Notes under the pieces: model-generated
Seen by the model: the letters and a program-made list of their open reading frames with translations, nothing else
Databases searched by the model: none
Told to the model about the DNA's origin: nothing
Position numbers and translations under genes: made by a program
Shown: positions 4,303 to 54,083 of the stretch, piece after piece
Position numbering within the stretch: position 1 is the stretch's first letter
Layout: each line of letters opens with the position of its first letter
DNA from: Gemmatimonadota bacterium
GTDB taxonomy: Bacteria; Gemmatimonadota; Gemmatimonadetes; Gemmatimonadales; GWC2-71-9
Direction of reading: 5' to 3'
DNA length: 64,000 nucleotides
Assembly (NCBI GenBank): GCA_003221895.1
Contig: QHUJ01000121.1
Coordinates: 5,847 to 69,846, forward strand

Positions 4303-5238
4303 GTGGTCACCTCCCAAGACATTCAGGAAGCCGCAGCGGGGCTGCGGGGCATCGCGCGCCGCACCCCACTGGTCTACGTGGAGGAGCTCGACGCCCACCT
4401 CAAGCTCGAGAACGAGCAGCCGATCGGGGCCTTCAAGATTCGCGGCGCCTACAACGCCATCCGCAAGCTTCCCGCCGCGGCGCGCCAGCGTGGGGTGATC
4501 ACCTACTCCTCCGGCAATCACGGCCAGGCCGTCGCATACGCCGCCAAACAATTCGGCGTGCGGGCGGTGGTCACCATGCCCGAGACGGCCCCCGCCATCA
4601 AAGTGGAAGGCGTCAAGAAATGGGGGGGGGAGGTCGTCGTCGCGGGCCGGACCTCAGAAGACCGCCGCATAAAGGCCGAGGAGATCGCCGCGCAAGAGGG
4701 CCTCGCGATCGTCCCTCCCTTCGACCACCCCGATATCGTCGCCGGACAGGCCACGATCGCACTTGAGATCGTGGAGCAGCTGCCCGACGTGCAAACGGTC
4801 GTCGTCCCGGTGGGAGGAGGCGGTCTGATCTCCGGCATCATCGCAGGCCTCGCGGCCGCGCGCAGCACCGCCGTGGTGTGGGGCGTCGAGCCCATTGGCG
4901 CGCCCAAGCTCCATCATTCACTCGCCGCAGGGAAAGTGGTTCGCCTCGAGCGGACGGGCAGCATCGCCGACGGGCTGATCACCCTCAACGTCGGCACCAT
5001 CCCGTTTGCCGAAATCAGCAAGGAGCGCGAGCGGATTCGCGGGGTGGTGCTGGTCGAGGATGACAGCATCCGCGCCGCCGTGCAGTTTCTCTGGCGAACC
5101 GTCGGTCTCGCGGTCGAGCCGTCGGGTGCCGCTACCACGGCCGCCCTGCTCACCGGCCTGCTGCCGCGCTCCCGCACCACCGTGTTGATCGTCAGCGGCG
5201 GCAACGTCGATCCCTCGCTGCTCGAGGCAAAAGACTGA
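4303..5238 (+). CDS. PLP-dependent serine/threonine dehydratase (threonine ammonia-lyase type, no ACT regulatory domain)
   Basis: Has the PLP-lysine motif GAFKIRGAYN, SSGNHGQAVAYAA, and the glycine loop VPVGGGGLISG. A GTG start lies 2 nt after the gyrA stop. Confidence 0.85.
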   Translation: MVTSQDIQEAAAGLRGIARRTPLVYVEELDAHLKLENEQPIGAFKIRGAYNAIRKLPAAARQRGVITYSSGNHGQAVAYAAKQFGVRAVVTMPETAPAIKVEGVKKWGGEVVVAGRTSEDRRIKAEEIAAQEGLAIVPPFDHPDIVAGQATIALEIVEQLPDVQTVVVPVGGGGLISGIIAGLAAARSTAVVWGVEPIGAPKLHHSLAAGKVVRLERTGSIADGLITLNVGTIPFAEISKERERIRGVVLVEDDSIRAAVQFLWRTVGLAVEPSGAATTAALLTGLLPRSRTTVLIVSGGNVDPSLLEAKD

Positions 5239-37362: not shown

Positions 37363-39282
37363 CTACCGACGCCGCGCTGCCGGTAGCGCTTGGTCGAAAG
37401 AAGCGAACTCGAAGGGCTTGGGAACGCAAGGCCGGCCGGTGCCGTCGAGGAAACGCTTCATCTGCTCGTTCACGAGGTCGCCGGTCGTGAAAATCACTCG
37501 CTCCGCGTGGCCGGGGTCGCCGCTGCGGAGTCGCTCGTACAGTTGCTCACCGGAAAGGTCGGGCATGCGCATGTCTACGATGACGGCATCGTATTTCGCG
37601 TCGCGCAGGCGCACGAGGGCATCCTCGCCGCTGGCCGTCGTTTCGACGTGATGCCCGCGACCCGCCAGGTACCGCTGCAGCGAGACGCGCACGGATGCCT
37701 CGTCGTCTACGACCAGGACCCGAAGGCTGTCGTTCCCGCTCGCCGCCTGCACGTGTGTGATCGCCGGCATTTCTCCCGACGTCCGTGCTTGGATGATCGG
37801 CAGCTCCACGATAAAGCGCGCCCCGCTCGACGCCACGTTCTCGGCCCAGATCCGGCCCTCGTGCTCGCGCACGATGCCGAGGGAGATCGAGAGGCCGAGC
37901 CCCGTGCCCGAGCCGGTCGGCTTGGTCGTGAAGAACGGATTGAAGATCCGCTCGATGAGGTTCGCCGGTATGCCGCCGCCGGTATCCTCGACCTCGATGC
38001 GAACCGCCTCGCCGTTGCGGCGCGTGCGGACGGTCAACCGGTGGTGGTGGCCGTCGCGCTGCTCCATCGCCTGCTCGGCGTTCGTGATGAGGTTGAGGAA
38101 GACCTGCTGCAGCTGGTGCGCGTCCGCCATCGTGTCGGCGAGGCTGTCGTCGTACTCGCGGCGCACGTCAATGCCGCGCACCCGGAGCTCATAGCCGCGC
38201 AGCTCCAGCGTGTCGTCGAGCACCTGGTTGATCGAGGTCGGGACCTTCTCGGCTTTGTGCTGGCGCGCAAACGTCAGCAGGTTCTGCACGATGCGGCTGG
38301 CGCGGCGGGCTTCGCTGTAAATCGTCTCCGCCGCCGTGCGCTGGTCGGGCGGGAATTTCTTCTCCGCCAGCAGCAGCTGGGCGAACGCCGAGATACCGGC
38401 CAGCGGGTTGTTGAGCTCGTGCGCGACGCCGGAGACGAGCTGCCCGATCGCGGACATCTTCTCCGACTGGATGAGCTGTTCCTGGAGCATCTTCTGGTCG
38501 GTGACGTCGCGAATGAGGCAGAGCACTTCCTCGTCCTTCTGCGGCGTCGAGTAGGTGATCGAGATGGTGCGGACTTCGCCGTCCTTGCGGTAGAACTGCG
38601 AGTCGAACAGCCCGGTCTCGCCGGCCAGTGCCTGCTGGAAGTGGCCGAGCGCCTTTGGCAGGTCGTCGTCGGGGAGCATGGGCGCGAACCACTGCCCGAC
38701 CAGCTCCTCGCGCTTGTAGCCTGAGATGTTTTCCGCGGCGTGGTTCACGGTGGTGAAGCGGCCATTCGCGTCGAGCGTCACGATCGCGTCGGACGCGGAT
38801 TCGACGAGGTGGCGGTAGCGGGCCTCGGAGCGCGCCAGTGTTTCTTGAGCGCGTTTCGGATCGGTGACGTCCCGCAGCGTGGCGACCGTGCCGATCAATT
38901 CACCGTCGACCCGGAAGGGTCCGCTCGACACCGCCACGTCGCGCTCTTCTTTCGTGCGGTGATTGAGGACGCGTGTTTCGTAGCGCTGTGGCTCACCGGC
39001 GAGGACCTTGTCCTCGCGTGCGGCGACGTGGTTGCGCTCACTCGGAGAGACCTGATCGGCTATGGCCTGCCCGACGATATCGGTGACGGTCCAGCCCAGC
39101 AGCTCGGCACCGGCTTCATTCGCGGCCAGCACTCGCCGGTCTGTCCCCGTCACCACCATCGCGTCCGGTAGGGCGGCCACGATGTCCGCTGCCGCCTGCA
39201 GCAGATCGAGCCGCGCGCGCTTCGGCGGAGCGGTGGTAGGGCGGGTAACCCGCGCGGGCGAAACGCGGCGAGCCTTACTCAC
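37363..39282 (-). CDS. Cytoplasmic hybrid sensor histidine kinase (2x PAS, HisKA, HATPase, REC)
   Basis: The H-box is SGVAHELNNPL. N and G boxes are NLITNAEQA and DTGGGI...GTGLGLS. The C-terminal REC has VLVVDDE and VIVDMRMPDLSG. A GTG start overlaps the upstream stop (GTGA). Confidence 0.9.
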   Translation of the reverse strand: MSKARRVSPARVTRPTTAPPKRARLDLLQAAADIVAALPDAMVVTGTDRRVLAANEAGAELLGWTVTDIVGQAIADQVSPSERNHVAAREDKVLAGEPQRYETRVLNHRTKEERDVAVSSGPFRVDGELIGTVATLRDVTDPKRAQETLARSEARYRHLVESASDAIVTLDANGRFTTVNHAAENISGYKREELVGQWFAPMLPDDDLPKALGHFQQALAGETGLFDSQFYRKDGEVRTISITYSTPQKDEEVLCLIRDVTDQKMLQEQLIQSEKMSAIGQLVSGVAHELNNPLAGISAFAQLLLAEKKFPPDQRTAAETIYSEARRASRIVQNLLTFARQHKAEKVPTSINQVLDDTLELRGYELRVRGIDVRREYDDSLADTMADAHQLQQVFLNLITNAEQAMEQRDGHHHRLTVRTRRNGEAVRIEVEDTGGGIPANLIERIFNPFFTTKPTGSGTGLGLSISLGIVREHEGRIWAENVASSGARFIVELPIIQARTSGEMPAITHVQAASGNDSLRVLVVDDEASVRVSLQRYLAGRGHHVETTASGEDALVRLRDAKYDAVIVDMRMPDLSGEQLYERLRSGDPGHAERVIFTTGDLVNEQMKRFLDGTGRPCVPKPFEFASFDQALPAARRR

Positions 39283-42479: not shown

Positions 42480-43469
42480 CTACACGTCTAGACCAGGCGT
42501 GGTTCTGCGGTCGCGCAACTGCTGTAGCGCACGAGAGACATATACTCGAGTCATCTGCTTGCGCCACGAGAGATCGAAATCGGTGTTGTCCATCGGCTTG
42601 GACGGACGGTAGGCCTCCTCCGCGGCTGCGGCGATCGATTCGTCGGAGAGCGCCCCTCCCCTGAGCGCGGTACCCGCCTCCGGAACCTCCTGCGGATAAC
42701 TGGCGACGCCGCCCAGCACGATGCGGGCATCGGCGACCGTCTTCCGATTCCACTGTATCCAGACCGCGACGCCGAGCACGGGAAAATCAAAGGAGCCGCG
42801 ACGCCGCAGCTTATGGTAGACGGCGTCCCAGCCGTTCGGCTTTGGGATCCTCACGTCGACCAGGATTTCGTCGGGCTGTTTCGTCAGATAGTTGATCCCG
42901 TCGTTGTGATAGAACCGCCCGGCGGGCACCACGCGCTCGCCCTGTGGGCCGAGCAAGCGGTACTCGGCACCGATCGCAACCATCACCGGAGCCACGTCGG
43001 ACGAGCTGACCGCCCAGCAGCGCGGTGAGGACGGTGCCACCCAGCAGATGTGGCCGTCCTTCTTCATGCAAAAGTCGATTGATTTCCGCCACTCATACGT
43101 CTGGTTGTAGTAGTTGCAGCGGGTATCGAGGCAGAGATTGCCGCCGAGCGTGCCCATGTTGCGGAGCAACGGGGTGGAAACGAGCCGAGCGGCGGTGGAT
43201 ACTGCGGCGGTCAGGCGGTCAGGCGGTCGGGCGGTCAGTTCACTCAGCGTGAGACATGCGCCGAGCGTTGTACTTTCGACGCGCCGCAGCTCCGGAATGC
43301 CCATCAGCGAGATCACCGTCTTCGGCTCCTGATGGCGGCGCTTCATGTTGGGATAGAGGTCGGTGCCCCCGGCGACGAACATGGCGTCCGGCCCGGCGTC
43401 CGCCTTCATCCGAAGCGCGTCAGCGAGTGACTTCGGTTCGAGATAGGTGAAGAAAGGGAGGCGCAGCAC
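42480..43469 (-). CDS. FAD-binding (medium) subunit of a xanthine-dehydrogenase-family molybdoenzyme, HcrB-like with an extra Cys cluster
   Basis: The GTG at 43469 overlaps the large-subunit stop (TAGTG). The FAD motif is FVAGGTDLYPNMK. The inserted cluster is C-x4-C-x15-C-x7-C-x8-C (NLCLDTRCNYYNQ...FCMKKDGHICWVAPSSPRCW). Only the last 329 aa of the 853-aa track ORF are taken as real. Confidence 0.8.
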   Translation of the reverse strand: MLRLPFFTYLEPKSLADALRMKADAGPDAMFVAGGTDLYPNMKRRHQEPKTVISLMGIPELRRVESTTLGACLTLSELTARPPDRLTAAVSTAARLVSTPLLRNMGTLGGNLCLDTRCNYYNQTYEWRKSIDFCMKKDGHICWVAPSSPRCWAVSSSDVAPVMVAIGAEYRLLGPQGERVVPAGRFYHNDGINYLTKQPDEILVDVRIPKPNGWDAVYHKLRRRGSFDFPVLGVAVWIQWNRKTVADARIVLGGVASYPQEVPEAGTALRGGALSDESIAAAAEEAYRPSKPMDNTDFDLSWRKQMTRVYVSRALQQLRDRRTTPGLDV

Positions 43470-45901
43470 TAGTGTGGCCGCTCCGCGGTAATAGCCGGTC
43501 GGCCGGGGCTGACTGCCTTTCCGTCCCCACCCTCCCACGGTGTGGGGACTCGCATGGGCTCCGGCCAGGGGATATCCGGAAAGCTCTCCGGACCGTGCCG
43601 CCCGGGCTCGCCTTTCTGCTTTTTCCGCAATGCCTTCAGCACCTTCTCGGGGGTGATCGGGACCTCGTCGATCCGCACGCCGACCGCGTCGTAGACCGCA
43701 TTGGCGACCGCCGGCATCACCGGCAGCAGCGGTCCCTGGCCCACTTCCTTCGCACCAAACGGGCCGTTGGGATCGGGGTCCTCGACCAGATACGTGATGA
43801 CATCGCACATCTCGAGCGTGGTGGGGCTCTTGTACTCGAGCAAGCTCGGGATCTTGTGCACGACGTTGCGGTTGCCGCGGTACGCCATCTCCTCCATCAG
43901 CGCCTCGCCGAGGCCCATGTAGATCGAGCCTTCGACCTGCCCGATGACAGCAGCCGAGTTGATCGAGCGGCCCACATCGTGCGCGATCCAGATCGTCGGG
44001 ACGCGCACAATGCCTGTCTCGGGATCGACGTCCACTGCGGCGACGCAGGCGCTGTACGAGTACGCCGGCGACGGGCCGACGCCGGCGCCGCGATATTTCC
44101 CCGCGCTCATCGGGGGCGTGTAGGAGCCCACGGTCCCAATCGTCCCCTCGGCCGCTTCCGCTGATTGGACGGCTTCCGCAAACGACATCCCGCGTTTGGG
44201 ATCCTTCGCGTCGTAGACGCGACGCTCCGCGAACGACAGCCGGTCGACCGGGATCTCGAGCTTCTTCGCGGCGTGAACGGCGAGGATCTGCCGTGCTCGC
44301 TCGGCCGCCTGCAGCGCGGCGTTGCCGCTCATGAGGGTTACGCGACTCGAGTAGCTGCCGAGATCGACCGGAGTCAAATCGGTGTCGCCAGTGACCACCG
44401 CGATATCGAAGGGATCGATGCCAAGCACTTCGGCCACGATGTAGGCGAGAATCGAATCGGACCCCTGCCCGATCTCCGTCGAGCCACAGAAGACCGTGAC
44501 GCCGCCGCCGCGGTCGCATTTCAGCTGCACGCCCGAATGCGGCATGTTGTTCCAGTAGATCGGCAGGCCGGCGCCGGAGATGTAACTCGAGCACGCGAGC
44601 CCCACGCCCCGCCCGCGCGGCAGCTTGCGGAACTTCTGCTTCCACCCCGAACCCTCGACAACTTTCGCGATGCACTTGCCGAGGCCCATCGATCCGACGC
44701 GCAGGTAGTTTGCGGTGAGTGAGTTGGCCGGCACGAGCGTCTTGAGACGCAGCTCGGCCGGATCGATTCCGAGCTGCTCGGCGATTTTGTCGATATGCAC
44801 TTCGAGCGCAAAACGCGGCTGCGGCGTGCCGTGCCCGCGCTTGGGCCCGCAGGGTGCCTTGTTGGTAAACGCGCGCGCCCCCTGGAAGTGATAGCACGGG
44901 ATGTGGTACGTCACGGTCTGCAGCGCGCCCGTGTAATACGTGCTCGCGACCCCGTACGACCCGTAGGCGCCGCCGTCGAGCAATGACCGGAAATGCATGC
45001 CGGTGATCGCACCGTCTTTCTTCACGCCGGTCCGCACCCACATCAGCGTCGGATGACGCCCGCGATGACAGTAGAAGACTTCCTCGCGGGTCAGCGTGAT
45101 TTTCACGGGCCGTCCCGTGATCATCGCGAGCTTCGCAACCGCGATCTCATGGTTGAAGGGGTCGCTCTTGCCGCCGAAGCCCCCACCGTTGGGAGTTGCG
45201 ATGACGCGAATGCGCGCCGCTGGCAGCTCCAGAACCTTGGCCAGCGCGCGATGCACGTAGTGGGGCGTTTGCGTCGACGTCCACAGCGTGAGCTTTTGAT
45301 CCGGCGACCACATCGCGACGGCGGCATGCTGCTCCATCGGGAGGTGCGTACTCCCTTCGAAGAAGAAGAGATCCTCCCGCACCATGTCGCCCTCGGCGAT
45401 GCCGGCGTTGGCATCGCCGAACTCCAGATCGATGAGTTTGTGGAAGTTGCCGCGGTCGCCGTAGTCGTGAATACGCGGCTCAGGGTGCTCGACAGCTTCC
45501 TCGGCTGAAGCGATGGATTTCAGCGGCTCGTAATCGACCCGGATCAGGTCGGTGGCTGCGGTGGCGGCTTCTTCCGTGAGGGCGGCAACGGCTGCGACAG
45601 GGTCGCCGATGAACCGAGCTTTGTCGATGCAGAGGGCATGCTCGTCCTGCGACACGGGGAGGATGCCGAACGGAATAGGTAGGTCCTGCCCGACGAGCAC
45701 CGCCTGAACCCCATCGAGCTTCGCTGCCGCAGATGTGTCGATGGAGACGATACGTGCGTGGGGTTGTGTGCTACGCAGGAGCTTGCAGAATAGCATGCGC
45801 GGGAACGCGAGGTCGTCGGCGAATTTCGTCGCGCCAGTAACCTTTGCTGCCGCGTCAACCTTGCGAAGCGCTTTCCCGATCACCCTGCGCTTATCTGCCA
45901 T
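43469..45901 (-). CDS. Molybdopterin-binding (large) subunit of a xanthine dehydrogenase / aldehyde oxidoreductase-family enzyme
   Basis: Start was chosen at the ATG at 45901 (MADKRRVIGKALRKVDAAAKVTG). It has an a/b-hammerhead followed by Moco-binding domains (GGGFGGK, a GxEIGQG-type STEIGQGS). About 810 aa. Confidence 0.88.
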   Translation of the reverse strand: MADKRRVIGKALRKVDAAAKVTGATKFADDLAFPRMLFCKLLRSTQPHARIVSIDTSAAAKLDGVQAVLVGQDLPIPFGILPVSQDEHALCIDKARFIGDPVAAVAALTEEAATAATDLIRVDYEPLKSIASAEEAVEHPEPRIHDYGDRGNFHKLIDLEFGDANAGIAEGDMVREDLFFFEGSTHLPMEQHAAVAMWSPDQKLTLWTSTQTPHYVHRALAKVLELPAARIRVIATPNGGGFGGKSDPFNHEIAVAKLAMITGRPVKITLTREEVFYCHRGRHPTLMWVRTGVKKDGAITGMHFRSLLDGGAYGSYGVASTYYTGALQTVTYHIPCYHFQGARAFTNKAPCGPKRGHGTPQPRFALEVHIDKIAEQLGIDPAELRLKTLVPANSLTANYLRVGSMGLGKCIAKVVEGSGWKQKFRKLPRGRGVGLACSSYISGAGLPIYWNNMPHSGVQLKCDRGGGVTVFCGSTEIGQGSDSILAYIVAEVLGIDPFDIAVVTGDTDLTPVDLGSYSSRVTLMSGNAALQAAERARQILAVHAAKKLEIPVDRLSFAERRVYDAKDPKRGMSFAEAVQSAEAAEGTIGTVGSYTPPMSAGKYRGAGVGPSPAYSYSACVAAVDVDPETGIVRVPTIWIAHDVGRSINSAAVIGQVEGSIYMGLGEALMEEMAYRGNRNVVHKIPSLLEYKSPTTLEMCDVITYLVEDPDPNGPFGAKEVGQGPLLPVMPAVANAVYDAVGVRIDEVPITPEKVLKALRKKQKGEPGRHGPESFPDIPWPEPMRVPTPWEGGDGKAVSPGRPAITAERPH

Positions 45902-46418
45902 ATAGCGACTCGGTCGTGGGTTCTGCTTTTTCCCCCCGCATCCGGGCGGCTGCGAGCTCCACCGCCTCGTAGATCTTGATGTAGCCGGTGCAGCGGCAGA
46001 GGTTGCCGGCGAGCGCGTCCTTGATCTCTTCACGTGTCGGCTTCGGATTGGCGGCGAGCAGGGCTTCAGCGGCTAGCAGGAAGGCCGGGGTACAGTAGCC
46101 GCACTGCGCCGCGCCGAGGTCTGCGAACGTGTCCTGGAGCGGATGGAGTTTGCCGCCCTGCGCCATGCCTTCCACGGTGCGCACCGTGCGGCCGGCGCAC
46201 GCGAGACCCAGCACGAGGCAGGAAAGCACCGGTGTTCCGTCGAGTAACACCGTGCATGTGCCGCACTCGCCCAGCTCGCAGCCATGCTTCGTTCCTGTCA
46301 GCCCGAGATCCTCCCGCAGCACCTCAAGCAGCGTCTTGTGCGGCGCGAACGCGATCTCGGTCGGCTCGCCGTTCACGGCAAGCGCGATCTTGACCTTCGA
46401 TTCGGAAGTCATGGTCAC
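45891..46418 (-). CDS. [2Fe-2S]-binding (small) subunit of the same molybdoenzyme
   Basis: Has a plant-type cluster (CELGECGTCTV) and a second cluster (QCGYCTPAF...NLCRCTGY). Confidence 0.92.
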   Translation of the reverse strand: MTMTSESKVKIALAVNGEPTEIAFAPHKTLLEVLREDLGLTGTKHGCELGECGTCTVLLDGTPVLSCLVLGLACAGRTVRTVEGMAQGGKLHPLQDTFADLGAAQCGYCTPAFLLAAEALLAANPKPTREEIKDALAGNLCRCTGYIKIYEAVELAAARMRGEKAEPTTESLYGR

Positions 46419-46463
46419 ATCGTAATCTTGATAAGAGGTAGGGGCGGCGCCAGCTTGTTGCCC

Positions 46464-47669
46464 ATGACAAAACTCATTTCACTCGCGGCCGTCGTCTCCA
46501 TCGTATTGACGTCTCCGCTCGCGGCGCAGGACTACCGGGCCCAGGCCATTCGCATCCTGCGTACTGTGCCTTTGATAGACGGTCACAACGACATCCCCGA
46601 TGCGGTGCGCGAGCGCGGTGGCCCCGACTCGGTCAACCTCGCCGTGAGCCAGCCGAAGCTGATGACCGACATCCCGCGGCTCCGTGCCGGCCACGTGGGT
46701 GGTCAGTTCTGGGCGGCGTATGTGCCGGTGAGCACGATACACGAAGGCGAGCACCCCGCGGTGTATGCATTGGAGCAGATCGACCTGGTGTACCGGCTGT
46801 GCGGCAGGTATCCCGCGACCTTCGCGATGGCCCGTACCGCCGCGGACGTCGAGCGGAACTTCAAGGCGGGCAAGATCTCGTGCCTGATCGGCATCGAAGG
46901 CGGCCATGCGATCGAGAATTCCCTGGGCGCGCTGCGCGCGTTCGCGCAGCTCGGCGTGCGCTACATGACGCTGACCCATTGGGAGACGATCGACTGGGCC
47001 GACGCGGCGACCGACAGCGCGAAACACAACGGGTTGACGACGTTTGGCGAGGCCGTGGTGCGGGAGATGAACCGGGTGGGCATGCTCGTCGATCTCTCGC
47101 ACGTCTCGGACGCCACGATGATGGATGCGCTGCGTGTGTCGCGCGCGCCGGTGATCTTCTCGCACTCATCCGCCCGCGCGCTCGACAACCACGTGCGCAA
47201 CGTCCCCGATTCGATTCTCACGCTGCTCGCGAAGAACGGCGGCGTCGTGATGACGAACTTCGCGCCCGACTACGTCTCGGAGTCGCTGCGGGTGTACGAC
47301 GACAGCCTACAAAAGAGGACGGCGCGGCTGCGCGCGGCGGGGCTGGATTCGGTGGCCGTTCGTGATTCGGTCAATGCCTGGCAGGCTGCGGGCCCAAAAG
47401 CGACGCTCGCCCAGGTCGCCGATCACGTCGAATACTTGCGCAAGGTGGCCGGCGTGGATCATGTCGGCATCGGCTCCGACTTCGACGGTATATCCAGCGT
47501 CCCGGTCGGACTCCAAGACGTGTCCAAATTCCCCGACCTGGTCGCGGAGCTGCTACGCCGCGGCTGGACCGAGGTTGACGTGAAGAAAGTGGCGGGGCTG
47601 AATACGCTGCGGGTGTTGCGGGAGGCTGAGCGAGTCGCGGGGGAGATGCAACGCCAACCGGAACGGTAG
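46464..47669 (+). CDS. M19 membrane dipeptidase family protein, secreted
   Basis: The ATG at 46464 gives the signal MTKLISLAAVVSIVLTSPLAAQ. Motifs are IDGHNDIP, GIEGGHAIE, DLSHVS and FSHSSARAL. Confidence 0.88.
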   Translation: MTKLISLAAVVSIVLTSPLAAQDYRAQAIRILRTVPLIDGHNDIPDAVRERGGPDSVNLAVSQPKLMTDIPRLRAGHVGGQFWAAYVPVSTIHEGEHPAVYALEQIDLVYRLCGRYPATFAMARTAADVERNFKAGKISCLIGIEGGHAIENSLGALRAFAQLGVRYMTLTHWETIDWADAATDSAKHNGLTTFGEAVVREMNRVGMLVDLSHVSDATMMDALRVSRAPVIFSHSSARALDNHVRNVPDSILTLLAKNGGVVMTNFAPDYVSESLRVYDDSLQKRTARLRAAGLDSVAVRDSVNAWQAAGPKATLAQVADHVEYLRKVAGVDHVGIGSDFDGISSVPVGLQDVSKFPDLVAELLRRGWTEVDVKKVAGLNTLRVLREAERVAGEMQRQPER

Positions 47670-47725: not shown

Positions 47726-48688
47726 ATGAGACGGCCCGCACAAGCAGTGATCGTGCACGGCGTGGTGGGCGGACTCCTCGCTGGACTCGTCGTCGTGCTG
47801 TGGTTCCTCGTTGCGGACTCACTGGCAGGGTATCCCTTCCTGACGCCCCGGCTGCTCGCCGGCATGCTCTTGAACAAGGATTTCGTGCACGTCACGCCCG
47901 GGCTCGTCGTCGCTTACACCGTGCTGCATTTCGGGGTCTTCGCAATCCTGGGCGTTGGTATGGCGTGGGTGAGCGCGACGTTGGCGGCGCCTGCTCGAGT
48001 CCTCCTCGGTCTACTCTTCGGGTTGCTCCTTCAGGAAGTCGTGTTTTACGCCGGCCTCCTTCTGTTTCGGGCGCCGCAGCTGGGTGTGATTCCCTGGCCG
48101 CACGTCGTCGGTGCGAATGTCGCCGCCGGGCTGGTGCTCATGGGGTACCTGCACTACGCGGAACACGATCCACGACCCCTGGGGCTTGCTGCTCTCCATG
48201 CGCCGCCCGTCGTGTCGCGCGGCGTGATCAACGGGCTCATTGGAGCGGCCGTTGTCGCCGCCTGGTTCTTCATCCTGGATCTCGTTAGGGGCACTCCGTT
48301 TCGTACGCCCGCGGCGCTTGCCTCCGCGCTGTTGATCGGTGGTGCCGGACCGGGAGACATCGTTGTCACGTTCGGCCTGGTCGCGGCGTACACGGTCGTG
48401 CACATCGTCGCCTTCGCGATTGCCGGAGTGGTTTTCGTTGCGTTGGCGGAGCAGGCCGAGCGCGCTCCCGCGATGAGCTTGCTCGTGTTACTCACCGCGA
48501 TTCTGCTCGATGGCCTGGTTCTCGCTACGTTGGGTGTAGGCGCCCAATGGGTTCTGGGGACGATCGGATCGTGGTCGGTAGTCGTTGCGAACTTCCTCGC
48601 CGTGCTGGCGATGGGCTGGCACGTATGGCGGACTCACCCTCTGCTACAACACCGGCTGCTGGAGGAACACCCACAGCTGCACGTTTAG
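47726..48688 (+). CDS. Hypothetical polytopic membrane protein built from two homologous ~150-aa, 4-TM halves
   Basis: The halves align by eye. GYPFLTP matches GTPFRTP, VAYTVLHFGVFAILG matches AAYTVVHIVAFAIAG, and VVGANVAAGLVLMGY matches VVVANFLAVLAMGW. No family was recognised. Confidence 0.6.
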   Translation: MRRPAQAVIVHGVVGGLLAGLVVVLWFLVADSLAGYPFLTPRLLAGMLLNKDFVHVTPGLVVAYTVLHFGVFAILGVGMAWVSATLAAPARVLLGLLFGLLLQEVVFYAGLLLFRAPQLGVIPWPHVVGANVAAGLVLMGYLHYAEHDPRPLGLAALHAPPVVSRGVINGLIGAAVVAAWFFILDLVRGTPFRTPAALASALLIGGAGPGDIVVTFGLVAAYTVVHIVAFAIAGVVFVALAEQAERAPAMSLLVLLTAILLDGLVLATLGVGAQWVLGTIGSWSVVVANFLAVLAMGWHVWRTHPLLQHRLLEEHPQLHV

Positions 48689-48782: not shown

Positions 48783-50918
48783 TCAGAACGCGCGTTCCAG
48801 CCCCAGCGCGACACCGCCGCGGGTCAGAATCGGCTGCGAATGCGTATACGTGGCATCGAGCCGCAGCTTCAAGCCGTTGGGCACGGTGTACCGAAATCCC
48901 GCTCCCGCGCTCCACGTGTCGAGCGACTGGATGGCTGTGCCGTTGAAAAAACTCTCCTGGCCACCGGACGCGAGAATGGACACCGCCGTCCGCGCGCCGA
49001 CCGCGCGCAGCGCTTGCAGCGATATCGCGAGATCGGTTTCCTGGGTCGGGCTATGCGAGATGAAGCCGCGTACGTTCCACGTCATCCGCGTCGACTCGAT
49101 GGTCGCGTGCGGCATGAACATGTCGACGGGGCCGACCGGATAGTTCCAATGCCGATACCCCGCGCCGACAGAAGCCCGCCGGGCAACGAGTCCCGCGACA
49201 TCGGCTTCCCAGGTGTTCGACGGCAGGAAGACCGGCTGGTGCGCCGTGCCCGCCTCGCCCGTGATCCACAGTTTCTGCCCGGGATGCCAGACGCCACCGA
49301 TGCGCTCGGTGACATCGACCTCCCCAAACCGGCCGACAACCTCGACGGCGGCCCATCCCCCATGCCCCTGCGGCGACATGACCGTAAGCTGCGCGCCCAA
49401 CGTGGACCAATCCTGGCTGTCGGTCACCTTCTCGTACGAGCTCCAGGCGCCGACGCGAAGATTCTGTCCCCGGCACGGCGCGGCGAGACACACCGCGAGC
49501 AGCGCCGCGATGCTCGTCTTGCCGAAGCCCTTGCGCGTCATGTCGCCCCACACCTGGGTGCGGCGCCACACGCTGACGAAGGCTTTGAGGCGCCACCACA
49601 CCGTGCATTGCCGGAAGCCGAAGTTTTCCAGTCCTGCGAAGAGCAGCAACCGGAATAGATCGCCAAAGCGCCGATAGCGACGGAAACTCACTTCCTCCAG
49701 CACGACGGCCCAGATCGAGAGCAGCATCCCGTAGCCCCAGGCGACCAGCACGAACAGCAGCGCGAACGAGACGTTCACCATGCCGAAGGCCAATCCGACA
49801 GCGGTGATCACGTAGCCGAGCAGCTCGATGAGCGGCGCCAGCATTTCGCCGAACGCGAAGAACGGCATCGCGAACAGGCCGACGCGGCCGTAGCGGGGAT
49901 TGAACAACATCGTCTTGTACCGCCACATCGCGGCGATCAGACCGCGATGCCAGCGCTCCCGCTGGCGTGACAGTACGGCCATCGATTCGGGGACCTCGGT
50001 CCAGGCGACGGGATCGGGAATGAACGGCATTTCGTACTTGATCCCGTTGAGCCGCAGATAGCGGTGCATGCGGACGACCAGGTCGAGGTCCTCGACAATG
50101 CTCGAGGTTTGATAGCCGCCGACCGCCATCACGTACTCCTTGCGAAACAGCCCGAACGCCCCCGAGATGATGAGATTGCCGCCGAGGCGGTTCCATCCCA
50201 GGCGCCCGAACAGAAACGCGCGCAGATACTCGACCACCTGGATTCCCGGGAGCAGCTTGGTCGGCACGCGCGCGTCAGTCACACGGCCGTCTTTCACCGT
50301 GCAGTTGTTCGCGACGCGGACGGTGCCCCCGACCGCGGCGATTTCACGACCCAGCAGGAACGGCCGCGTGAGGCGCAGCAGCGCGTCGGGCTCGATCAGC
50401 GTGTCGGCATCGATGGCGATGACGAGCGGGAAGCGGCTGGCGTTGATGGCGGCGTTCAGGGAATCGGCCTTCCCGCCGTTTTCCTTGTCGAGCACCAGCA
50501 GGCGCGAGCGCGACCGCGAGCGGTACAGCGCGCGGAGCGGCTGTGTGGGAATCGTTTCCGGATAGATGCGCGGGATCTCGTACAAATCGAACGCTTCACG
50601 CAGCCGCTCGATCGTATCGTCCTTCGAGCCGTCGTTCACGACGACGACTTCGTAGTTGCGATACTCGAGCGTGAGAATCGCGGTGACACTCGCCTCGATC
50701 GTTGCAGACTCGTTGTACGCCGGCACGAGGATCGTAATCGGCGGCAGCGCATCGCTCTGCATGAGACGCTGGAAGTCCTCGTCTTCGGCGAGGCGCGTTT
50801 GCTCCCAGATCTCGGGGATCGAGAGCAGCAGCAGCAGCGCATAGAACGAGTTGAGGACGAGGAAATACACCAGAATGGTGACATCCGTCGTCCCAATCAC
50901 CGGGGCGAGCGTGCTCAT
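48783..50918 (-). CDS. Processive family-2 glycosyltransferase (PgaC/IcaA/BcsA-like synthase) fused in frame to a ~250-aa outer-membrane-type (YaiO-like?) beta-barrel domain
   Basis: Start was chosen at the ATG at 50918 (MSTLAPV...), an ATGA overlap with the HEAT gene. GT2 motifs are ILVPAYNES, VVNDGSKDDT, NGGKADSLN, IDADT, SGAFGLFRK, VEDLDL and QRERW. After the last TM region come MTRKGFGKTSIAALLAVCLAAPCRGQ and a beta-rich domain ending ...GLERAF. Confidence 0.8.
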   Translation of the reverse strand: MSTLAPVIGTTDVTILVYFLVLNSFYALLLLLSIPEIWEQTRLAEDEDFQRLMQSDALPPITILVPAYNESATIEASVTAILTLEYRNYEVVVVNDGSKDDTIERLREAFDLYEIPRIYPETIPTQPLRALYRSRSRSRLLVLDKENGGKADSLNAAINASRFPLVIAIDADTLIEPDALLRLTRPFLLGREIAAVGGTVRVANNCTVKDGRVTDARVPTKLLPGIQVVEYLRAFLFGRLGWNRLGGNLIISGAFGLFRKEYVMAVGGYQTSSIVEDLDLVVRMHRYLRLNGIKYEMPFIPDPVAWTEVPESMAVLSRQRERWHRGLIAAMWRYKTMLFNPRYGRVGLFAMPFFAFGEMLAPLIELLGYVITAVGLAFGMVNVSFALLFVLVAWGYGMLLSIWAVVLEEVSFRRYRRFGDLFRLLLFAGLENFGFRQCTVWWRLKAFVSVWRRTQVWGDMTRKGFGKTSIAALLAVCLAAPCRGQNLRVGAWSSYEKVTDSQDWSTLGAQLTVMSPQGHGGWAAVEVVGRFGEVDVTERIGGVWHPGQKLWITGEAGTAHQPVFLPSNTWEADVAGLVARRASVGAGYRHWNYPVGPVDMFMPHATIESTRMTWNVRGFISHSPTQETDLAISLQALRAVGARTAVSILASGGQESFFNGTAIQSLDTWSAGAGFRYTVPNGLKLRLDATYTHSQPILTRGGVALGLERAF

Positions 50919-51982
50919 GCTGCAAACTCCGCGAGCGCCTGCGCCGGTAATCCCAGCACCATCTTGGCCGTCGCGCGGGCGTACGGGTCGCTCCCGACTT
51001 CGGCCTCGAGCAGCGCGTTCCGGCCCACTGCCGCGAAGCGCATCAACGCGAGCGCCGCGCGCAGCCGGACCCACCAGACATCGTCCCGCAGCGCGGCTTT
51101 CACGAGGGGGAGTGTGTTGACGTCGCCGATCATCCCCAGCGAGCGCGCCGCCTGCGCCCGGACGGGCCAGGAGCCGTCAGCGATCAGCCGCGTGAGCGCC
51201 GCCACGGACTCCCGGTGCGGGAAGGTGCCCAGCGAGCGCGCCGCCTGGACGCGAACTTCCGGATTGGGGTGATCGGCCAGCGCCGTGAGGCGCTCGCGCA
51301 GCGCCGGCTCACCGAGCCGTGCCGCGAACTCGGCGAGCCGCGCCAGTCCAGGGTCTTCGCTGCGGCGCAGTCGCTTCTGCAGATGCTCGACGACGACAGG
51401 CCGGGAGCGCAGCAACATGGCTGCGTAATACGCCTGAACCGTTGGCGCGAGCTTGGGGAGACGCTCCAAGGCCGTCAGCGTCAGCGCTGTGTTCTCCATG
51501 CGCTCGAGGCAGGCGACGGCGGCGACGTGCACCGCCGGGTGCGGGTCATTGATGAGGCGCGTGAGCCGGGCGGCGTCCTGCGGCATCGCCGCAACGCTGA
51601 GAAAGCGGGCGCACTCGAGCCGCTTCCACCACCGCGCGGAGCTGCTGTTGCTGCGCACCAGACGCGCCCACCAGTTGTGCTCGAGGGCGAGCGCCAGCTG
51701 GCGCCAGCGCTCGCCCGGGACGCGCGCGGACCATTTGACGAGCGCATCGATCGCGAGCGGCACGGGAAGCCGGGACAGGCCGACGAGCACCCCCGCAAGC
51801 GGAGCGGTGCCGGCCGCCCAGCGACGCATCGAGGCATCGACCGCCTCACGCCGTGGATTGAGCCGGGTGCTGCGTCGCACCCGGAACCAGCGGTTCAGCA
51901 CGATGAGGACGATGAGCGCGCCGAGCAGGCCGCCCTGCACGATCGCCACCACGATGAGGAACTGTCGGGGCGACGCGATCAT
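50915..51982 (-). CDS. Membrane-anchored HEAT-repeat protein
   Basis: The ATG at 51982 overlaps the upstream stop (ATGA). An N-terminal TM helix (FLIVVAIVQGGLLGALIVLIVL) is followed by HEAT/PBS-lyase-like repeats (DPHPAVHVAAVACL, HPNPEVRVQAARSLG, GSWPVRAQAARSLG, DVWWVRLRAALAL). Confidence 0.75.
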   Translation of the reverse strand: MIASPRQFLIVVAIVQGGLLGALIVLIVLNRWFRVRRSTRLNPRREAVDASMRRWAAGTAPLAGVLVGLSRLPVPLAIDALVKWSARVPGERWRQLALALEHNWWARLVRSNSSSARWWKRLECARFLSVAAMPQDAARLTRLINDPHPAVHVAAVACLERMENTALTLTALERLPKLAPTVQAYYAAMLLRSRPVVVEHLQKRLRRSEDPGLARLAEFAARLGEPALRERLTALADHPNPEVRVQAARSLGTFPHRESVAALTRLIADGSWPVRAQAARSLGMIGDVNTLPLVKAALRDDVWWVRLRAALALMRFAAVGRNALLEAEVGSDPYARATAKMVLGLPAQALAEFAA

Positions 51983-52779
51983 CTGCCCACCCACCGCCGG
52001 ATTTTTTCGAGCGCGACACGCAGGCTCATGGGCTTGACCATGTAGTCCAACGCCCCTGCCTCGAGGCCGCGCAGCTGCTCGGACTCACTGCCATGCACGG
52101 TCGTGAAGACCACGCGAAACTTGCCTGGGCACTCCTCCTTGAGCGCTTCGAAGATCGAATAGCCGTCGAGCGCCGGCAGATCGACGTCCAGCAGCAACAG
52201 CGGCGTCTGCCCGTGCGTCTCCAGCTCGCGGAGGGCGTCCAACGCCTCGCGGCCGTTGCGGTAGTGCACGAAGCGATAGCCGCGCGCCTCCAGCCCGAAC
52301 GTCAGCAGCTCCGCCAGCGTGGGATCGTCCTCGACGACGATCACTTCGGGGACGTCGGCTGCCGGCAGGTCGGGAGAGGCCGGTGGAGGAGCCGGAGCGA
52401 TGTCGATCCGCGGCGGCGCGCCCTGCTTCGTGAACAACGCGGCCGCGAGACGACGCACGAACGCGCGGGCTTCCTGCCCGCGATTTCCGGCGCTGCCATT
52501 GCCAGGGTGCTCGAGCCATTGCGTGGTGGCTGCCTCGAGCTCTGCCGCGACGACGCTTGCCTGGGGAAATCCGAACGAACCAGCCGAGCCGCGCAGCCGA
52601 TGGGCATCGCGGCGCAGTGCTTCTATCGCAGCCGTGTCGTCGCCCGCGGCGACGAGCCGTTCGGCTAGTTCGGCGATCGCCCCGAGCTGGTCGCGGGCTC
52701 CCTGCAGGTATTCGTCCCGTGCGCCGGGGGGAAGCCCGAAGTCGTCGACTCCTCCCCCTCCCTGGTTCACGGGCACCAA
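51979..52779 (-). CDS. Hpt-REC two-domain phosphorelay protein (no output domain)
   Basis: The Hpt motif is HRLRGSAGSFG, with His at about residue 60. REC motifs are VIVVEDD, LLLLDVDLPALDG and MVKP. The start is uncertain (TTG at 52779, or GTG at 52776 or 52770). Confidence 0.8.
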   Translation of the reverse strand: MVPVNQGGGGVDDFGLPPGARDEYLQGARDQLGAIAELAERLVAAGDDTAAIEALRRDAHRLRGSAGSFGFPQASVVAAELEAATTQWLEHPGNGSAGNRGQEARAFVRRLAAALFTKQGAPPRIDIAPAPPPASPDLPAADVPEVIVVEDDPTLAELLTFGLEARGYRFVHYRNGREALDALRELETHGQTPLLLLDVDLPALDGYSIFEALKEECPGKFRVVFTTVHGSESEQLRGLEAGALDYMVKPMSLRVALEKIRRWVGR

Positions 52780-53054: not shown

Positions 53055-54083
53055 GTGCCGACGAGCAGGGGTGCTCACGCTGGTGATTTTGAGCACGGTT
53101 GTGACTTTCCTCACTTGCAGAACGCTCAGCCGTTTCTCACTTTGAACCGCCGCTCAGCTATCTCCTTGGCCGAAAGGGACTTCGTGCAGCGATTTTTGCT
53201 GAAGTATTTCGAGCGCATCCTCGTGCTGCTGCTCGTTGCTTCCTTGCTGGTGATCAACCGCCTCATCGACCAGAAACTCGCCTTTCTCAGCTTCTACTAT
53301 CTGCCGGTGATCCTTGCGGGTTTCTTTGGCGGGCGGCGCTTTGCGGTCGGATCGGCGGTGTTCATCGCCGCGCTCACGCTTTTCTTCCAGGCGATCGAAG
53401 GCTTCGGCATGGAAGCCGGGCTGACGCCGGACTCCATGCTGACGCTGGTGCCCTGGGCCGGGTTCCTGATCCTCACCGGATACGTGGTTGGTGGGCTCGC
53501 GGAGCAGCGCGCCGCCCGGTTGGCGGATCTCAAGAACGCGTATCTCGCGACCCTCGAGATGCTCACCTTTCACATCGAATCGACCGAGCGGCATCAGGAA
53601 GGTCATTCGACGCGCGTCGCCCAATTGGCCGGCGAGATGGGCGCCGAGCTCAAGCTGCCGGAGAGCGAGCTGGAGAACCTGCGGATCGCCGCGCTCCTGC
53701 ATGAGGTGGGGATCGCCGATCACCGTCTGCTGCGGCTCCTGTCGCGCTCGGTGACTGACGAGACCGTTGCGGTGGCACGCGCCCTGCGCGGCGCCGCTGA
53801 GATCATCGCGGAATACTCGCACTACTATGAGATCGTGGGCGACGATTGGGACATCGAGGCGCTGCCGATGGCGACGCCGGTGAAGGTGCTGGCCGTCGCC
53901 GACGCATTCGAGACGCTTCAGATGGCGACGCCGGTACGGCCGGCGTTTACGCGGTGGAGCGCGCTCGAGGAAGTGGAGAAAGGCGCAGGAAGGACGTTTG
54001 CGCGTGAAGCGGTGCGGGCGCTCCGTGTCGTGGCCGGCCGCCCCGAAGTGGCAGCCCCAGCCAAAGCGCTGAAGGTGGTCTAG
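53055..54083 (+). CDS. Membrane protein with a degenerate HD-GYP-like domain
   Basis: N-terminal TM helices are followed by GHSTRVAQLAGEMG, AALLHEVGIAD (HD replaced by HE, with no HHExxDGSGYP motif) and VLAVADAFETL...RPAF. The start is uncertain; the GTG at 53184 after AAGGGA is an alternative. Confidence 0.65.
   Translation: MPTSRGAHAGDFEHGCDFPHLQNAQPFLTLNRRSAISLAERDFVQRFLLKYFERILVLLLVASLLVINRLIDQKLAFLSFYYLPVILAGFFGGRRFAVGSAVFIAALTLFFQAIEGFGMEAGLTPDSMLTLVPWAGFLILTGYVVGGLAEQRAARLADLKNAYLATLEMLTFHIESTERHQEGHSTRVAQLAGEMGAELKLPESELENLRIAALLHEVGIADHRLLRLLSRSVTDETVAVARALRGAAEIIAEYSHYYEIVGDDWDIEALPMATPVKVLAVADAFETLQMATPVRPAFTRWSALEEVEKGAGRTFAREAVRALRVVAGRPEVAAPAKALKVV

Follow-up and report, generated by a model that had tools for sequence, protein, structure and literature searches.

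We analyzed a 64,000-nt window, the whole stretch of DNA under study, from a soil Gemmatimonadota bacterium (Gemmatimonadales; assembly GCA_003221895.1, contig QHUJ01000121.1). The ORF read-out confirmed three minus-strand ORFs in the order g1-g2-g3, and the two ATGA overlaps that had led the original prediction to propose a coupled operon were read straight from the sequence (Table 1). Four-nucleotide overlaps matching that of g1 and g2 were also present in the related loci L086 and L088. The domains earlier assigned to the three proteins were all recovered by Pfam, NCBIfam and AF2. As had also been claimed, Pfam and NCBIfam gave no PgaB-, PgaD-, BcsB- or PilZ-type match in g1, g2, g3 or the scanned neighbours.

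Table 1. Features of the locus and the candidate kinase (window positions; residues are those of the encoded protein)
Feature	Position	Strand	Size or basis
g1, Hpt-REC phosphorelay protein	51979..52779	minus	266 aa counted from a TTG; start codon among the first 4 codons
ATGA stop/start overlap g1/g2	51979..51982	minus	direct sequence reading; translational coupling
g2, single-TM HEAT-repeat protein	50915..51982	minus	355 aa
ATGA stop/start overlap g2/g3	50915..50918	minus	direct sequence reading
g3, GT2 synthase-barrel fusion	48783..50918	minus	711 aa
g3 residues 1-465, processive membrane GT2 synthase	49524..50918	minus	Pfam, NCBIfam, motifs, AF2
g3 residues 460-484, retained Sec-type signal peptide	49467..49541	minus	P0272, L081 junction, 120 fused homologues
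g3 residues 485-711 and stop, YaiO-type OM beta-barrel	48783..49466	minus	AF2, TIGR04390, custom YaiO profile
Candidate upstream kinase, PAS-PAS-HisKA-HATPase-REC hybrid histidine kinase, no Hpt	37363..39282	minus	Pfam

The synthase part of g3 matched Glyco_tranf_2_3 in Pfam (E 2e-27) and had a complete set of catalytic motifs (D96, D170-x-D172, E276-D277 and Q319RERW323). It contained one N-terminal and four C-terminal TM helices, closed with the family-conserved cytoplasmic motif WGDMTRKGF (residues 457-465) and was modelled by AF2 with a pLDDT of about 90. The best Foldseek matches were hyaluronan synthase (E 1.6e-16), BcsA and chitin synthases, which places g3 with processive membrane synthases rather than with non-processive enzymes, in agreement with the prediction. 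Identity to E. coli PgaC was 27% over 331 aa. Sequence and model thus strongly support that g3 would polymerise a nucleotide sugar at the inner membrane and pass the chain across it by a TM channel of its own. Since PgaC/IcaA is the closest sequence family, a beta-linked HexNAc-type polymer may be guessed at.

For the C-terminal part, AF2 placed a 14-stranded beta-barrel at residues 486-710 (block pLDDT 85-97), and the last residue of g3 is Phe. The curated YaiO model TIGR04390 aligned over profile positions 16-230 of 230 but scored 22.9 bits, below its cutoff of 32. A custom YaiO profile, built without any sequence of the window clade, matched the barrel over its full length with an E-value of 2.5e-14. 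The OM-type barrel anticipated from the sequence was therefore borne out by the model and the custom profile, and we propose that it acts as an export porin. Strong TPR-YaiO genes adjoin the GT2 gene in Neomarinimicrobiota, Bacteroidota and Longimicrobiales, and C-terminal fusions of a signal-like TM segment and a (TPR-)barrel arose independently in L035, L077, P0122 and P0131. A YaiO-family ORF was found in 18 of 80 loci. No barrel gene lay within 6 kb in most Gemmatimonadota relatives (e.g. L005-L023), indicating that not every copy of the module includes a barrel.

The second protein, g2, matched HEAT_2 (E 5e-22), HEAT and HEAT_PBS in Pfam, and hydropathy identified a hydrophobic helix at residues 10-28. 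It is predicted to be an N-out single-TM protein with a cytoplasmic HEAT-repeat solenoid. To follow the gene pair across genomes, we used a family profile, which showed that less than 200 nt lay between the end of a HEAT orthologue and the start of GT2 in all 72 related loci with enough upstream DNA; loci with a HEAT gene directly upstream of GT2 came from at least 9 phyla. Natural HEAT-GT2 fusions (P0213, P0217, P0218, P0240 and P0131) and HEAT-GT2-TPR-barrel fusions were also present. The AF2 model of the P0213 fusion was compact (pTM 0.87), and the HEAT-GT2 fusions have one extra TM helix, just the number required for both domains, HEAT and GT, to face the cytoplasm together. We propose that g2 is a synthase co-subunit and regulatory adaptor. 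An analogy for such a role is the fungal chitin synthase Chs3, a processive GT2 that needs the cytoplasmic-face alpha-solenoid Sel1-repeat activator Chs4/Skt5; however, this pair is eukaryotic, has Sel1/TPR-like instead of HEAT repeats and involves no phosphorelay, and no homology is claimed.

In g1, Pfam identified an Hpt domain (residues 22-85, E 1e-10) and a Response_reg domain (residues 146-260, E 1e-18) and detected no output domain. Counted on the translation, the phosphorylatable His of the HRLRGSAGSFG motif is H60, and the key residues of the REC domain are D151, D152, D198 and K249. The REC phospho-acceptor and pocket residues were kept in 52-58 of 60 syntenic homologues, and orthologous Hpt-REC genes were located upstream of HEAT in L001-L014, L027, L028, L081 and L088. 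Custom-profile scans of all window ORFs agreed with the prediction of a single hybrid kinase without Hpt and a single Hpt domain, that of g1; the hybrid kinase was also the sole histidine kinase of the window. The speculative link between the two gained from the fact that a PAS hybrid histidine kinase of the same architecture lies directly upstream of the REC/GGDEF gene in 7 distant loci (L036, L045, L070, L037, L030, L068 and L074). On the other hand, 12.7 kb separate the window kinase from g1, and the identity of this kinase to the operon-linked kinases (24-28%) is generic only. We infer that it may serve as the phosphodonor of g1.

The original prediction had described the locus as a minimal module. 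Comparison across many phyla did not support this, since the HEAT gene was nearly always preceded by a gene whose product has a phosphorylatable REC as its C-terminal domain, and in distant loci the protein at this position was an [Hpt]-REC-GGDEF-REC protein, with a PAS hybrid kinase upstream and often a (TPR-)YaiO barrel gene downstream of GT2. An intact GG(D/E)EF motif was found in a minority of loci (L031, L032, L036, L053, L063 and L046) and was degenerate or absent in most, while the C-terminal REC with its Asp was retained in 56 of 60. Rather than a stand-alone minimal module, the window locus is supported by these sequence comparisons as a reduced, partly fused derivative of a module of histidine kinase, [Hpt]-REC-GGDEF-REC, HEAT, GT2 and (TPR-)YaiO, in which the GGDEF, carried between two REC domains in the ancestral forms, would have been lost in the window lineage. 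Monoderm Actinomycetota also have the module; there the fourth gene encodes a membrane-anchored extracytoplasmic protein of roughly 750 aa that has no known domain and is not a porin.

With moderate confidence, we interpret the three genes as a reduced synthase-dependent exopolysaccharide system in which the HEAT protein is a co-subunit and a phosphorelay acts as the gate through the REC domain. In the proposed mechanism, g2 would be an obligate co-subunit, held by its one TM anchor, with the cytoplasmic solenoid packed on the synthase. Phosphate would pass from the hybrid kinase to H60 of the g1 Hpt and on to D198 of its REC, and the phosphorylated, output-less REC would then dock on the HEAT subunit and open or close the synthase. 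The contact between REC and HEAT is purely conjectural, and no REC-HEAT fusion was found among the family members searched. The phosphorelay would thereby fill the place of the c-di-GMP receptors in Bcs, Pga, Pel, Alg and Nfr.

Rather unlikely, to our judgement, is the alternative that c-di-GMP is the real switch, with the HEAT protein or the HEAT/GT2 interface as receptor, the ligand supplied in trans and the Hpt-REC protein only a leftover scaffold or modulator. The HEAT/GT2 interface could be likened to that of PgaC-PgaD, which is a c-di-GMP receptor, and all characterised synthase-dependent systems use c-di-GMP, to our knowledge. The Nfr system is one that does so (PMC8669469). The GGDEF of the upstream protein, intact in the six distant loci named above, also speaks for this reading, and an intact REC-x-GGDEF cyclase in the window (5238-6674, GGEEF motif) could supply the ligand. 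However, loss or decay of GGDEF in most loci set against the retained C-terminal REC argues otherwise, no PilZ, MshEN or GIL-type domain was detectable in g2 or g3 with Pfam and NCBIfam, and in g1 both the His of Hpt and the Asp of REC are intact and conserved, which argues against a vestigial role.

At the junction of the synthase and barrel parts of g3, a canonical Sec-type signal peptide has been retained. Its n-region is MTRKGFGK, its h-region is TSIAALLAVCLAA and its cleavage region is P-C-R-G followed by Q, with the predicted cleavage site between G484 and Q485. M460 corresponds to the former start codon of the barrel, since the stand-alone orthologue P0272 begins at the equivalent Met. 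Unfused four-gene operons (REC, HEAT, GT2, YaiO) were found in the sister genomes L081, L086 and L088, where barrel orthologues of 248-252 aa with signal peptides of their own lie directly downstream of GT2. A DNA junction alignment with L081 showed that the fusion junction is a 45-nt deletion falling between two near-identical sequence stretches, and a recent origin of the fusion by this deletion is thus strongly supported. All 120 protein clusters listed (75-95% identical) shared this architecture, with lengths of 704-716 aa (mostly 711), which ruled out an assembly artefact. In these 120 fused homologues, Pro was at -4 in 117, a small residue at -3, G/S/A at -1 in 118 and Q at +1 in 116; the signal-peptidase site was kept in 118-120. 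In the AF2 model, the linker at 460-484 had low confidence and included a short helix (470-479). The stretch between the hydrophobic core and the first strand of the barrel is only about 5 residues long, too short for a chain left uncleaved to cross the periplasm.

Because the signal peptide is retained and predicted to be cleavable, synthase and barrel most likely become separate proteins, and the sequence indicates that the barrel is probably released. Signal peptidase I would cut at the predicted site, or translation would restart at M460, and the freed barrel would be inserted by BAM to form the export pore. A precedent is the Bradyrhizobium FbcH cytochrome b/c1 polyprotein, in which a polytopic inner-membrane protein and a secreted partner are separated after translocation by a cut at an internal signal peptide; the proteins are unrelated to g3, and the released part of FbcH stays at the inner membrane whereas that of g3 would reach the outer membrane. 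That g3 instead stays intact seems improbable: more than 100 lineages carry the gene as one ORF, which does indicate that the fusion is tolerated and stable, and the AF2 model (pTM 0.68) did not constrain the domains relative to each other, but the domain is a closed barrel of an OM protein family with a C-terminal Phe, it is a separate secreted protein in the sister genomes, and the conserved -3/-1 pattern would be needless for a permanent anchor. Least probable of all is that the GT2 makes an envelope glycan (periplasmic glucan, lipid-linked glycan or cell-wall polymer) and that the signalling and HEAT genes serve envelope homeostasis, as the Actinomycetota modules and the many Gemmatimonadota loci without a barrel might suggest, since the GT2 agrees with polymer-translocating synthases in its QxxRW motif and its C-terminal TM bundle, and the TPR and beta-barrel partner in the module family points to trans-envelope export, of which it is a hallmark in Pga, Bcs and Nfr (PMC8669469).

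We compared the proposed exopolysaccharide system with known ones. PgaC/IcaA was the best-scoring curated family for g3 (TIGR03937, 141 bits), far under the equivalog cutoff of 422. As in PgaABCD/IcaADBC, where the synthase requires a small membrane partner (PgaD/IcaD) and diderm Pga uses a beta-barrel porin, the window synthase has a membrane partner; however, this is a 355-aa HEAT solenoid, PgaD, the PgaB deacetylase and PgaA are absent, the barrel of the window clade belongs to the YaiO type, has 14 predicted strands and lacks TPR, and control would be by Hpt-REC instead of c-di-GMP at the synthase-partner interface. BcsA-BcsB-BcsC shares a processive GT2 with a TM channel (a structural match) and a TPR and barrel exporter, and the family member P0122 is fused to TPR and a BcsC_C-like barrel, but the window operon lacks PilZ and BcsB, and the CelA model gave g3 46 bits against a cutoff of 699. 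In the uncharacterised E. coli yaiS-yaiP-yaiX-yaiO locus, the GT2 YaiP adjoins the founding YaiO barrel. YaiP, however, matched only the N-terminal 221 aa of g3 (28% identity), the locus also encodes a deacetylase and an acyltransferase but lacks genes for HEAT, REC or Hpt proteins, and E. coli YaiO had no pairwise similarity to the window barrel, the link being at profile level only. The E. coli N4 glycan receptor system NfrB-NfrA-YbcH is likewise compact and synthase-dependent, with a GT2 that has its own regulatory module, a TPR/beta-barrel OM protein and a dedicated local signalling input, the cyclase gene being in the operon in some species (PMC8669469, PMC8669472). NfrB, however, senses c-di-GMP through a fused MshEN domain that is absent in g3 (PMC8669469, PMC8669472), neither a HEAT partner nor a REC belongs to Nfr, and NfrB and NfrA had no meaningful similarity to g3 and the TPR-YaiO proteins.

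Neither the curated families of NCBIfam nor the literature searched gave a named or described system, in line with the original prediction. The locus apparently belongs to a widespread, undescribed system for sugar-polymer synthesis and export with a HEAT and a two-component partner. Its derivation from a GGDEF-bearing module makes c-di-GMP part of the history of the family, and c-di-GMP may still act in trans on the window module.

The three minus-strand genes that the original prediction had described as an operon (g1, g2 and g3) were present, and ATGA stop/start overlaps joined g1 to g2 and g2 to g3. The longest ORFs would start at upstream GTG codons, at 51074 for g3 and 51994 for g2, which are not used: the shorter lengths are shared by over 100 homologues. 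The nearest proteins were 89-95% identical and came from Gemmatimonadales metagenome bins; the G+C content of the window was 63-68%. As had been claimed, g1 encodes an Hpt domain (residues 22-85, Pfam E = 1e-10) and a receiver (REC, residues 146-260), and no output domain was found in it. The phosphorylatable H60 of the Hpt domain lies within HRLRGSAGSFG, an HxxKG-type motif. The receiver has D151 and D152 of the acidic pocket, the phospho-acceptor D198, and K249, whose equivalents were kept in 52-58 of 60 syntenic homologues. The description of g2 also agreed with our analysis: a strongly hydrophobic helix (residues 10-28) is followed by an Arg-rich stretch, together implying an N-out, C-in topology, and then by HEAT/PBS-lyase-type repeats (HEAT_2, E = 5e-22) for which the nearest PDB sequences were designed alpha-Rep HEAT proteins.

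Positions of the features discussed, in the window or in related loci (L numbers) of other genomes
Feature	Source	Position	Strand	Size	Content
g1	window	51979-52779	-	266 aa	Hpt + receiver
g2	window	50915-51982	-	355 aa	TM helix + HEAT repeats
g3	window	48783-50918	-	711 aa	GT2 synthase + C-terminal barrel
WGxMxRxGF of g3	window	49524-49550			g3 residues 457-465
Hybrid kinase	window	37363-39282	-		PAS-PAS-HisKA-HATPase-REC
GGDEF protein	window	5238-6674	+	478 aa	REC-(~190-aa middle)-GGDEF
Divergent multi-TM protein	window	53055-54083	+		degenerate HD_5 domain
Convergent polytopic protein	window	47726-48688	+	320 aa	
Molybdoenzyme cluster	window	42480-46033	-		xanthine-dehydrogenase/CO-dehydrogenase type
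MoCoBD large subunit	window	43469-46033	-		molybdoenzyme cluster
FAD-binding subunit	window	within over-long ORF 42480-45041	-		molybdoenzyme cluster
M19 dipeptidase	window	46284-47669			
Tandem Hpt-REC paralogues	L081	2322-4534			5' of HEAT gene
TPR-YaiO	L059	3415-4839			between REC and HEAT genes
TPR-YaiO	L071	3366-4790			between REC and HEAT genes
TPR-YaiO	L040	3535-4866			between REC and HEAT genes
Actinobacterial ~750-aa protein	L037	7438-9663			
Actinobacterial ~750-aa protein	L050	5618-7921			
Actinobacterial ~750-aa protein	L078	3909-7625			C-terminal 760 aa

Residues 1-465 of g3 matched family-2 glycosyltransferases (GT2; Pfam GT2 families, E = 2e-27), and all four GT-A family-2 motifs that had been claimed were located (D96, D170xD172, E276D277 and Q319RERW323). 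In the AlphaFold2 model (mean pLDDT 90.2) a single TM helix precedes the GT-A domain and four follow it, and these flanking helices are predicted to form the polymer channel. A Foldseek search returned hyaluronan synthases at the top (E = 1.6e-16), followed by BcsA and by chitin synthases, which groups g3 with processive rather than non-processive enzymes. Nearly all members of this GT2 subfamily end in the WGxMxRxGF motif, which was not spotted on reading through the alignment with E. coli PgaC. Its topology places the motif in the cytoplasm, where it may serve the HEAT or REC partner as a docking site.

The remainder of g3 (residues 486-710) was predicted by AlphaFold2 to form a barrel of 14 antiparallel strands, and it ends in a C-terminal Phe. 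TIGR04390 (YaiO) spanned profile positions 16-230 of 230 but scored 22.9 bits, below its cutoff of 32. Pfam YaiO (PF19413) was unreported for the window protein, precomputed for some orthologues and weak for the stand-alone barrel of L081. Pairwise BLASTP of the window barrel with E. coli YaiO found nothing. Since hhalign of two small alignments (barrel against YaiO) was also weak, at 21.7% probability, a larger iterated profile was needed. This custom profile, seeded with E. coli YaiO and strong YaiO domains from other loci and excluding window-clade sequences, matched the window barrel with E = 2.5e-14, the match spanning positions 12-237 of 237. Divergent barrels of other loci had escaped a narrow profile made from window-clade barrels. 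The C-terminal part of g3 thus has full-length YaiO profile similarity, a predicted barrel fold and a Sec signal peptide, and the strands and the profile match uphold the claim that an outer-membrane-type barrel is fused to the GT2.

That the 711-aa ORF might be an assembly or frameshift artefact was rejected, as its architecture is common to all 120 clusters listed. A search with the barrel alone returned stand-alone barrels of 248-252 aa with ordinary signal peptides, encoded on contigs of sister Gemmatimonadales where the genes are unfused. In L081, which has the window's flanking genes, a 466-aa GT2 and a 252-aa YaiO lie 11 nt apart, and in L086 and L088 the REC, HEAT, GT2 and YaiO parts are four separate genes with 4-nt overlaps. 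When the junction DNA was aligned, the fused allele was 45 nt shorter than L081. The flanks of this deletion are near-identical stretches, one encoding the GT2 C-terminal WG(D/E)MxRKGF and the other comprising the ribosome-binding site and M-A-R-K-G start of the barrel gene, which makes M460 of g3 the start codon that the barrel once had. Among the fused homologues listed, the n-region and h-region of the signal peptide were kept in 120/120, Pro occupied -4 in 117/120, -3 was small (C/G/A/T), -1 was G, S or A in 118/120, and +1 was Q in 116/120. By these residues g3 has a canonical signal-peptidase I site, where the cut is predicted to fall at G484|Q485. Barrel strand 1 starts at residue 486, close behind the hydrophobic core (to about residue 480), so that a chain left uncleaved would be too short to extend to the outer membrane. 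We infer that the barrel would function there only upon release, whether through cleavage or through internal initiation at M460. Fusions of a signal-like TM helix to a barrel also occur in L035 and L077, and we take these to be independent events.

We scanned one genome per species, obtaining 590 relatives, and examined the best 80 loci of the 590. Across the examined loci the GT2 core (residues 1 to ~465, ending in WGxMxRxGF) was 46-89% identical. The module was found in Gemmatimonadota, Nitrospirota, Binatia, Neomarinimicrobiota, Bacteroidota/Rhodothermota, Ignavibacteria, Myxococcales, Chloroflexi, Thermoanaerobaculia (Acidobacteriota) and Actinomycetota (Pseudarthrobacter, Frankiales and Rubrobacteraceae). 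With a g2-family profile, a HEAT ORF ended less than 200 nt from the GT2 start in all 72 loci that had enough upstream DNA, and the gene 5' of HEAT nearly always ended in a receiver, so that the synteny of the trio holds well beyond the window. The protein encoded by this upstream gene is Hpt-REC in the window clade, Hpt-REC-x-REC in Gemmatimonas-type loci, and [Hpt]-REC-GGDEF-REC in Nitrospirota, Neomarinimicrobiota, Longimicrobiales, Binatia and Actinomycetota. Only L031, L032, L036, L046, L053 and L063 keep an intact GG(D/E)EF motif in this protein; in most loci the motif is degenerate. L081 has two tandem Hpt-REC paralogues, the first with a degenerate receiver in which the conserved Lys is replaced and the second cut to 156 aa by the gene caller.

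In several diderm phyla a TPR-YaiO protein (Pfam YaiO, E = 1e-45 to 1e-50) lies 3' of the GT2 gene. YaiO-family ORFs were present in 18 of the 80 loci, at times elsewhere within the cluster; three loci of Ignavibacteria and Bacteroidota have TPR-YaiO between the REC and HEAT genes, and the gene order of the module is therefore fluid. Actinobacterial loci have a membrane-anchored extracytoplasmic protein of ~750 aa in place of the barrel, fused to the synthase C-terminus in L078 (protein P0126). It had no match in Pfam, NCBIfam or PDB sequences and is possibly a new polysaccharide-processing domain.

Gene fusions also linked the HEAT and GT2 parts. When a library of representatives at 50% identity was searched, 1,496 clusters scored E<1e-30, and among the top hits we noted four HEAT-GT2 fusion proteins (P0213, P0217, P0218 and P0240), a HEAT-GT2-TM-TPR-barrel protein (P0131) whose residues 1-332 align end-to-end with g2 (E = 4e-14), and a GT2-TPR-BcsC_C-like protein (P0122). 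In the HEAT-GT2 fusions the two parts are separated by precisely one additional TM helix, as their topology would require for the HEAT and GT domains to lie together in the cytoplasm. The AlphaFold2 model of P0213 reached a pLDDT of 91 and a pTM of 0.87; HEAT and GT2 therefore appear as one compact assembly, unlike the GT2 and barrel of g3 (pTM 0.68). No REC-HEAT gene fusion was found among the 80+ loci. Taken together, the results support a processive membrane GT2 that has a HEAT-repeat membrane protein as its obligate partner and, in the window clade, is also paired with a YaiO-type outer-membrane barrel made as part of a polyprotein.

The GT2 motifs, predicted TM helices and co-encoded outer-membrane barrel of g3 are those of the synthase-dependent exopolysaccharide class, and the module would work like the Pga, Bcs and Nfr systems (PMC8669469 for Nfr). 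Membership in any of these three was ruled out by model cutoffs and missing partners. PgaC/IcaA was the best curated family for g3, which is 27% identical to E. coli PgaC over 331 aa, yet g3 did not reach the TIGR03937 equivalog cutoff (141.2 vs 422.3 bits). The score against TIGR03030 (CelA) was 46 bits for a cutoff of 699. In keeping with the original prediction, no PgaD, PgaB deacetylase, PilZ or BcsB matched in the three proteins or the scanned neighbours, and neither did IcaD, IcaB or a PgaA porin. The MshEN c-di-GMP domain expected on an Nfr-type GT2 was not detected in g3. E. coli NfrB gave a BLASTP match spanning only 55 aa (E = 5e-05), and alignments of NfrA with TPR-YaiO were confined to TPR stretches. 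The uncharacterised E. coli yaiS-yaiP-yaiX-yaiO locus is a precedent for GT2-YaiO pairing, but YaiP is only distantly related to g3 and the locus has no HEAT or REC genes. NCBIfam has no model for the g2-type HEAT partner or for the GT2 subfamily of g3. HEAT, YaiO and Gemmatimonadota all go unmentioned in a systematic survey of synthase-dependent operons (PMC7112194), and a description of the module was not found in the open-access literature, where absence is no proof of absence. From sequence comparison, the module is a broadly distributed and apparently undescribed family of synthase-dependent polysaccharide systems. The proposal of a minimal exopolysaccharide module is supported as to the kind of system; rather than minimal and stand-alone, the window operon is a reduced, partly fused member of this family.

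Several genes around the operon were also noted. The divergent multi-TM gene keeps its place beside the operon in L001-L010, L027, L081 and L088; a role as an HD-GYP c-di-GMP phosphodiesterase was unsupported, as its protein has HE in place of HD and no GYP motif. The polytopic protein convergent with g3 matched nothing in Pfam, seems to have arisen by internal duplication judging from its two halves, and is syntenic in L001, L002, L005, L011 and L081. The molybdoenzyme/M19 flank is also present in L081 and L086.

A hybrid kinase (GAF/MASE3-PAS-HisKA-HATPase-REC(-Hpt)) is encoded directly 5' of the REC/GGDEF gene in L030, L036, L037, L045, L068, L070 and L074, and in L073 the nearest REC-containing gene found 5' of HEAT encodes a PAS hybrid kinase ending in Hpt. 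Custom-profile scans agreed with the earlier claim that the window has a single hybrid kinase, lacking Hpt, and a single Hpt domain, that of g1; this kinase was also the only kinase found. In architecture it agrees with the operon-encoded kinases of other loci, to which its identity is a generic 24-28% that does not establish orthology, and its pairing with g1 therefore stays hypothetical.

To our knowledge, every synthase-dependent exopolysaccharide system that has been studied well (those for cellulose, PNAG, alginate and Pel, and Nfr) has c-di-GMP binding to the synthase complex as its on-switch. The only GGDEF protein that profiles found in the window has an intact GGEEF and could be a source of c-di-GMP in trans. 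On the other hand, the terminal REC, HEAT and GT2 are the invariants of the family and GGDEF is dispensable, which favours phospho-REC over c-di-GMP as the conserved signal. In a phospho-REC mechanism, the hybrid kinase would phosphorylate the output-less receiver through Hpt, and the phosphorylated receiver would dock on the HEAT subunit, whose solenoid would be a cytoplasmic adaptor on the synthase, and so switch synthesis. Signal peptidase would free the barrel to become the export pore. The most far-reaching interpretation, offered tentatively and at less than an even chance, is that a phospho-receiver with no output binds the HEAT co-subunit and directly gates the processive synthase. This would be a c-di-GMP-independent, two-component, post-translational switch derived from a local REC-GGDEF-REC cyclase that turned dispensable, and the synthase and outer-membrane pore of the window clade would be one polyprotein split by signal peptidase at the internal signal peptide.

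The module may thus represent a new form of control, in which a class of HEAT-solenoid co-subunit is joined to a dedicated His-Asp phosphorelay with a terminal receiver that has no output. Among relatives the GGDEF domain is active, degenerate or deleted, a natural evolutionary series that makes the choice between second-messenger and direct phospho-protein control directly testable. A synthase-porin polyprotein with an internal signal peptide would be an unusual biogenesis and is a case of fusion by microhomology deletion, and the uncharacterised YaiO barrel family gains a likely role as a polysaccharide export pore. The host groups are important in soils, wastewater and oceans, settings in which the formation of aggregates and biofilms is of practical consequence.
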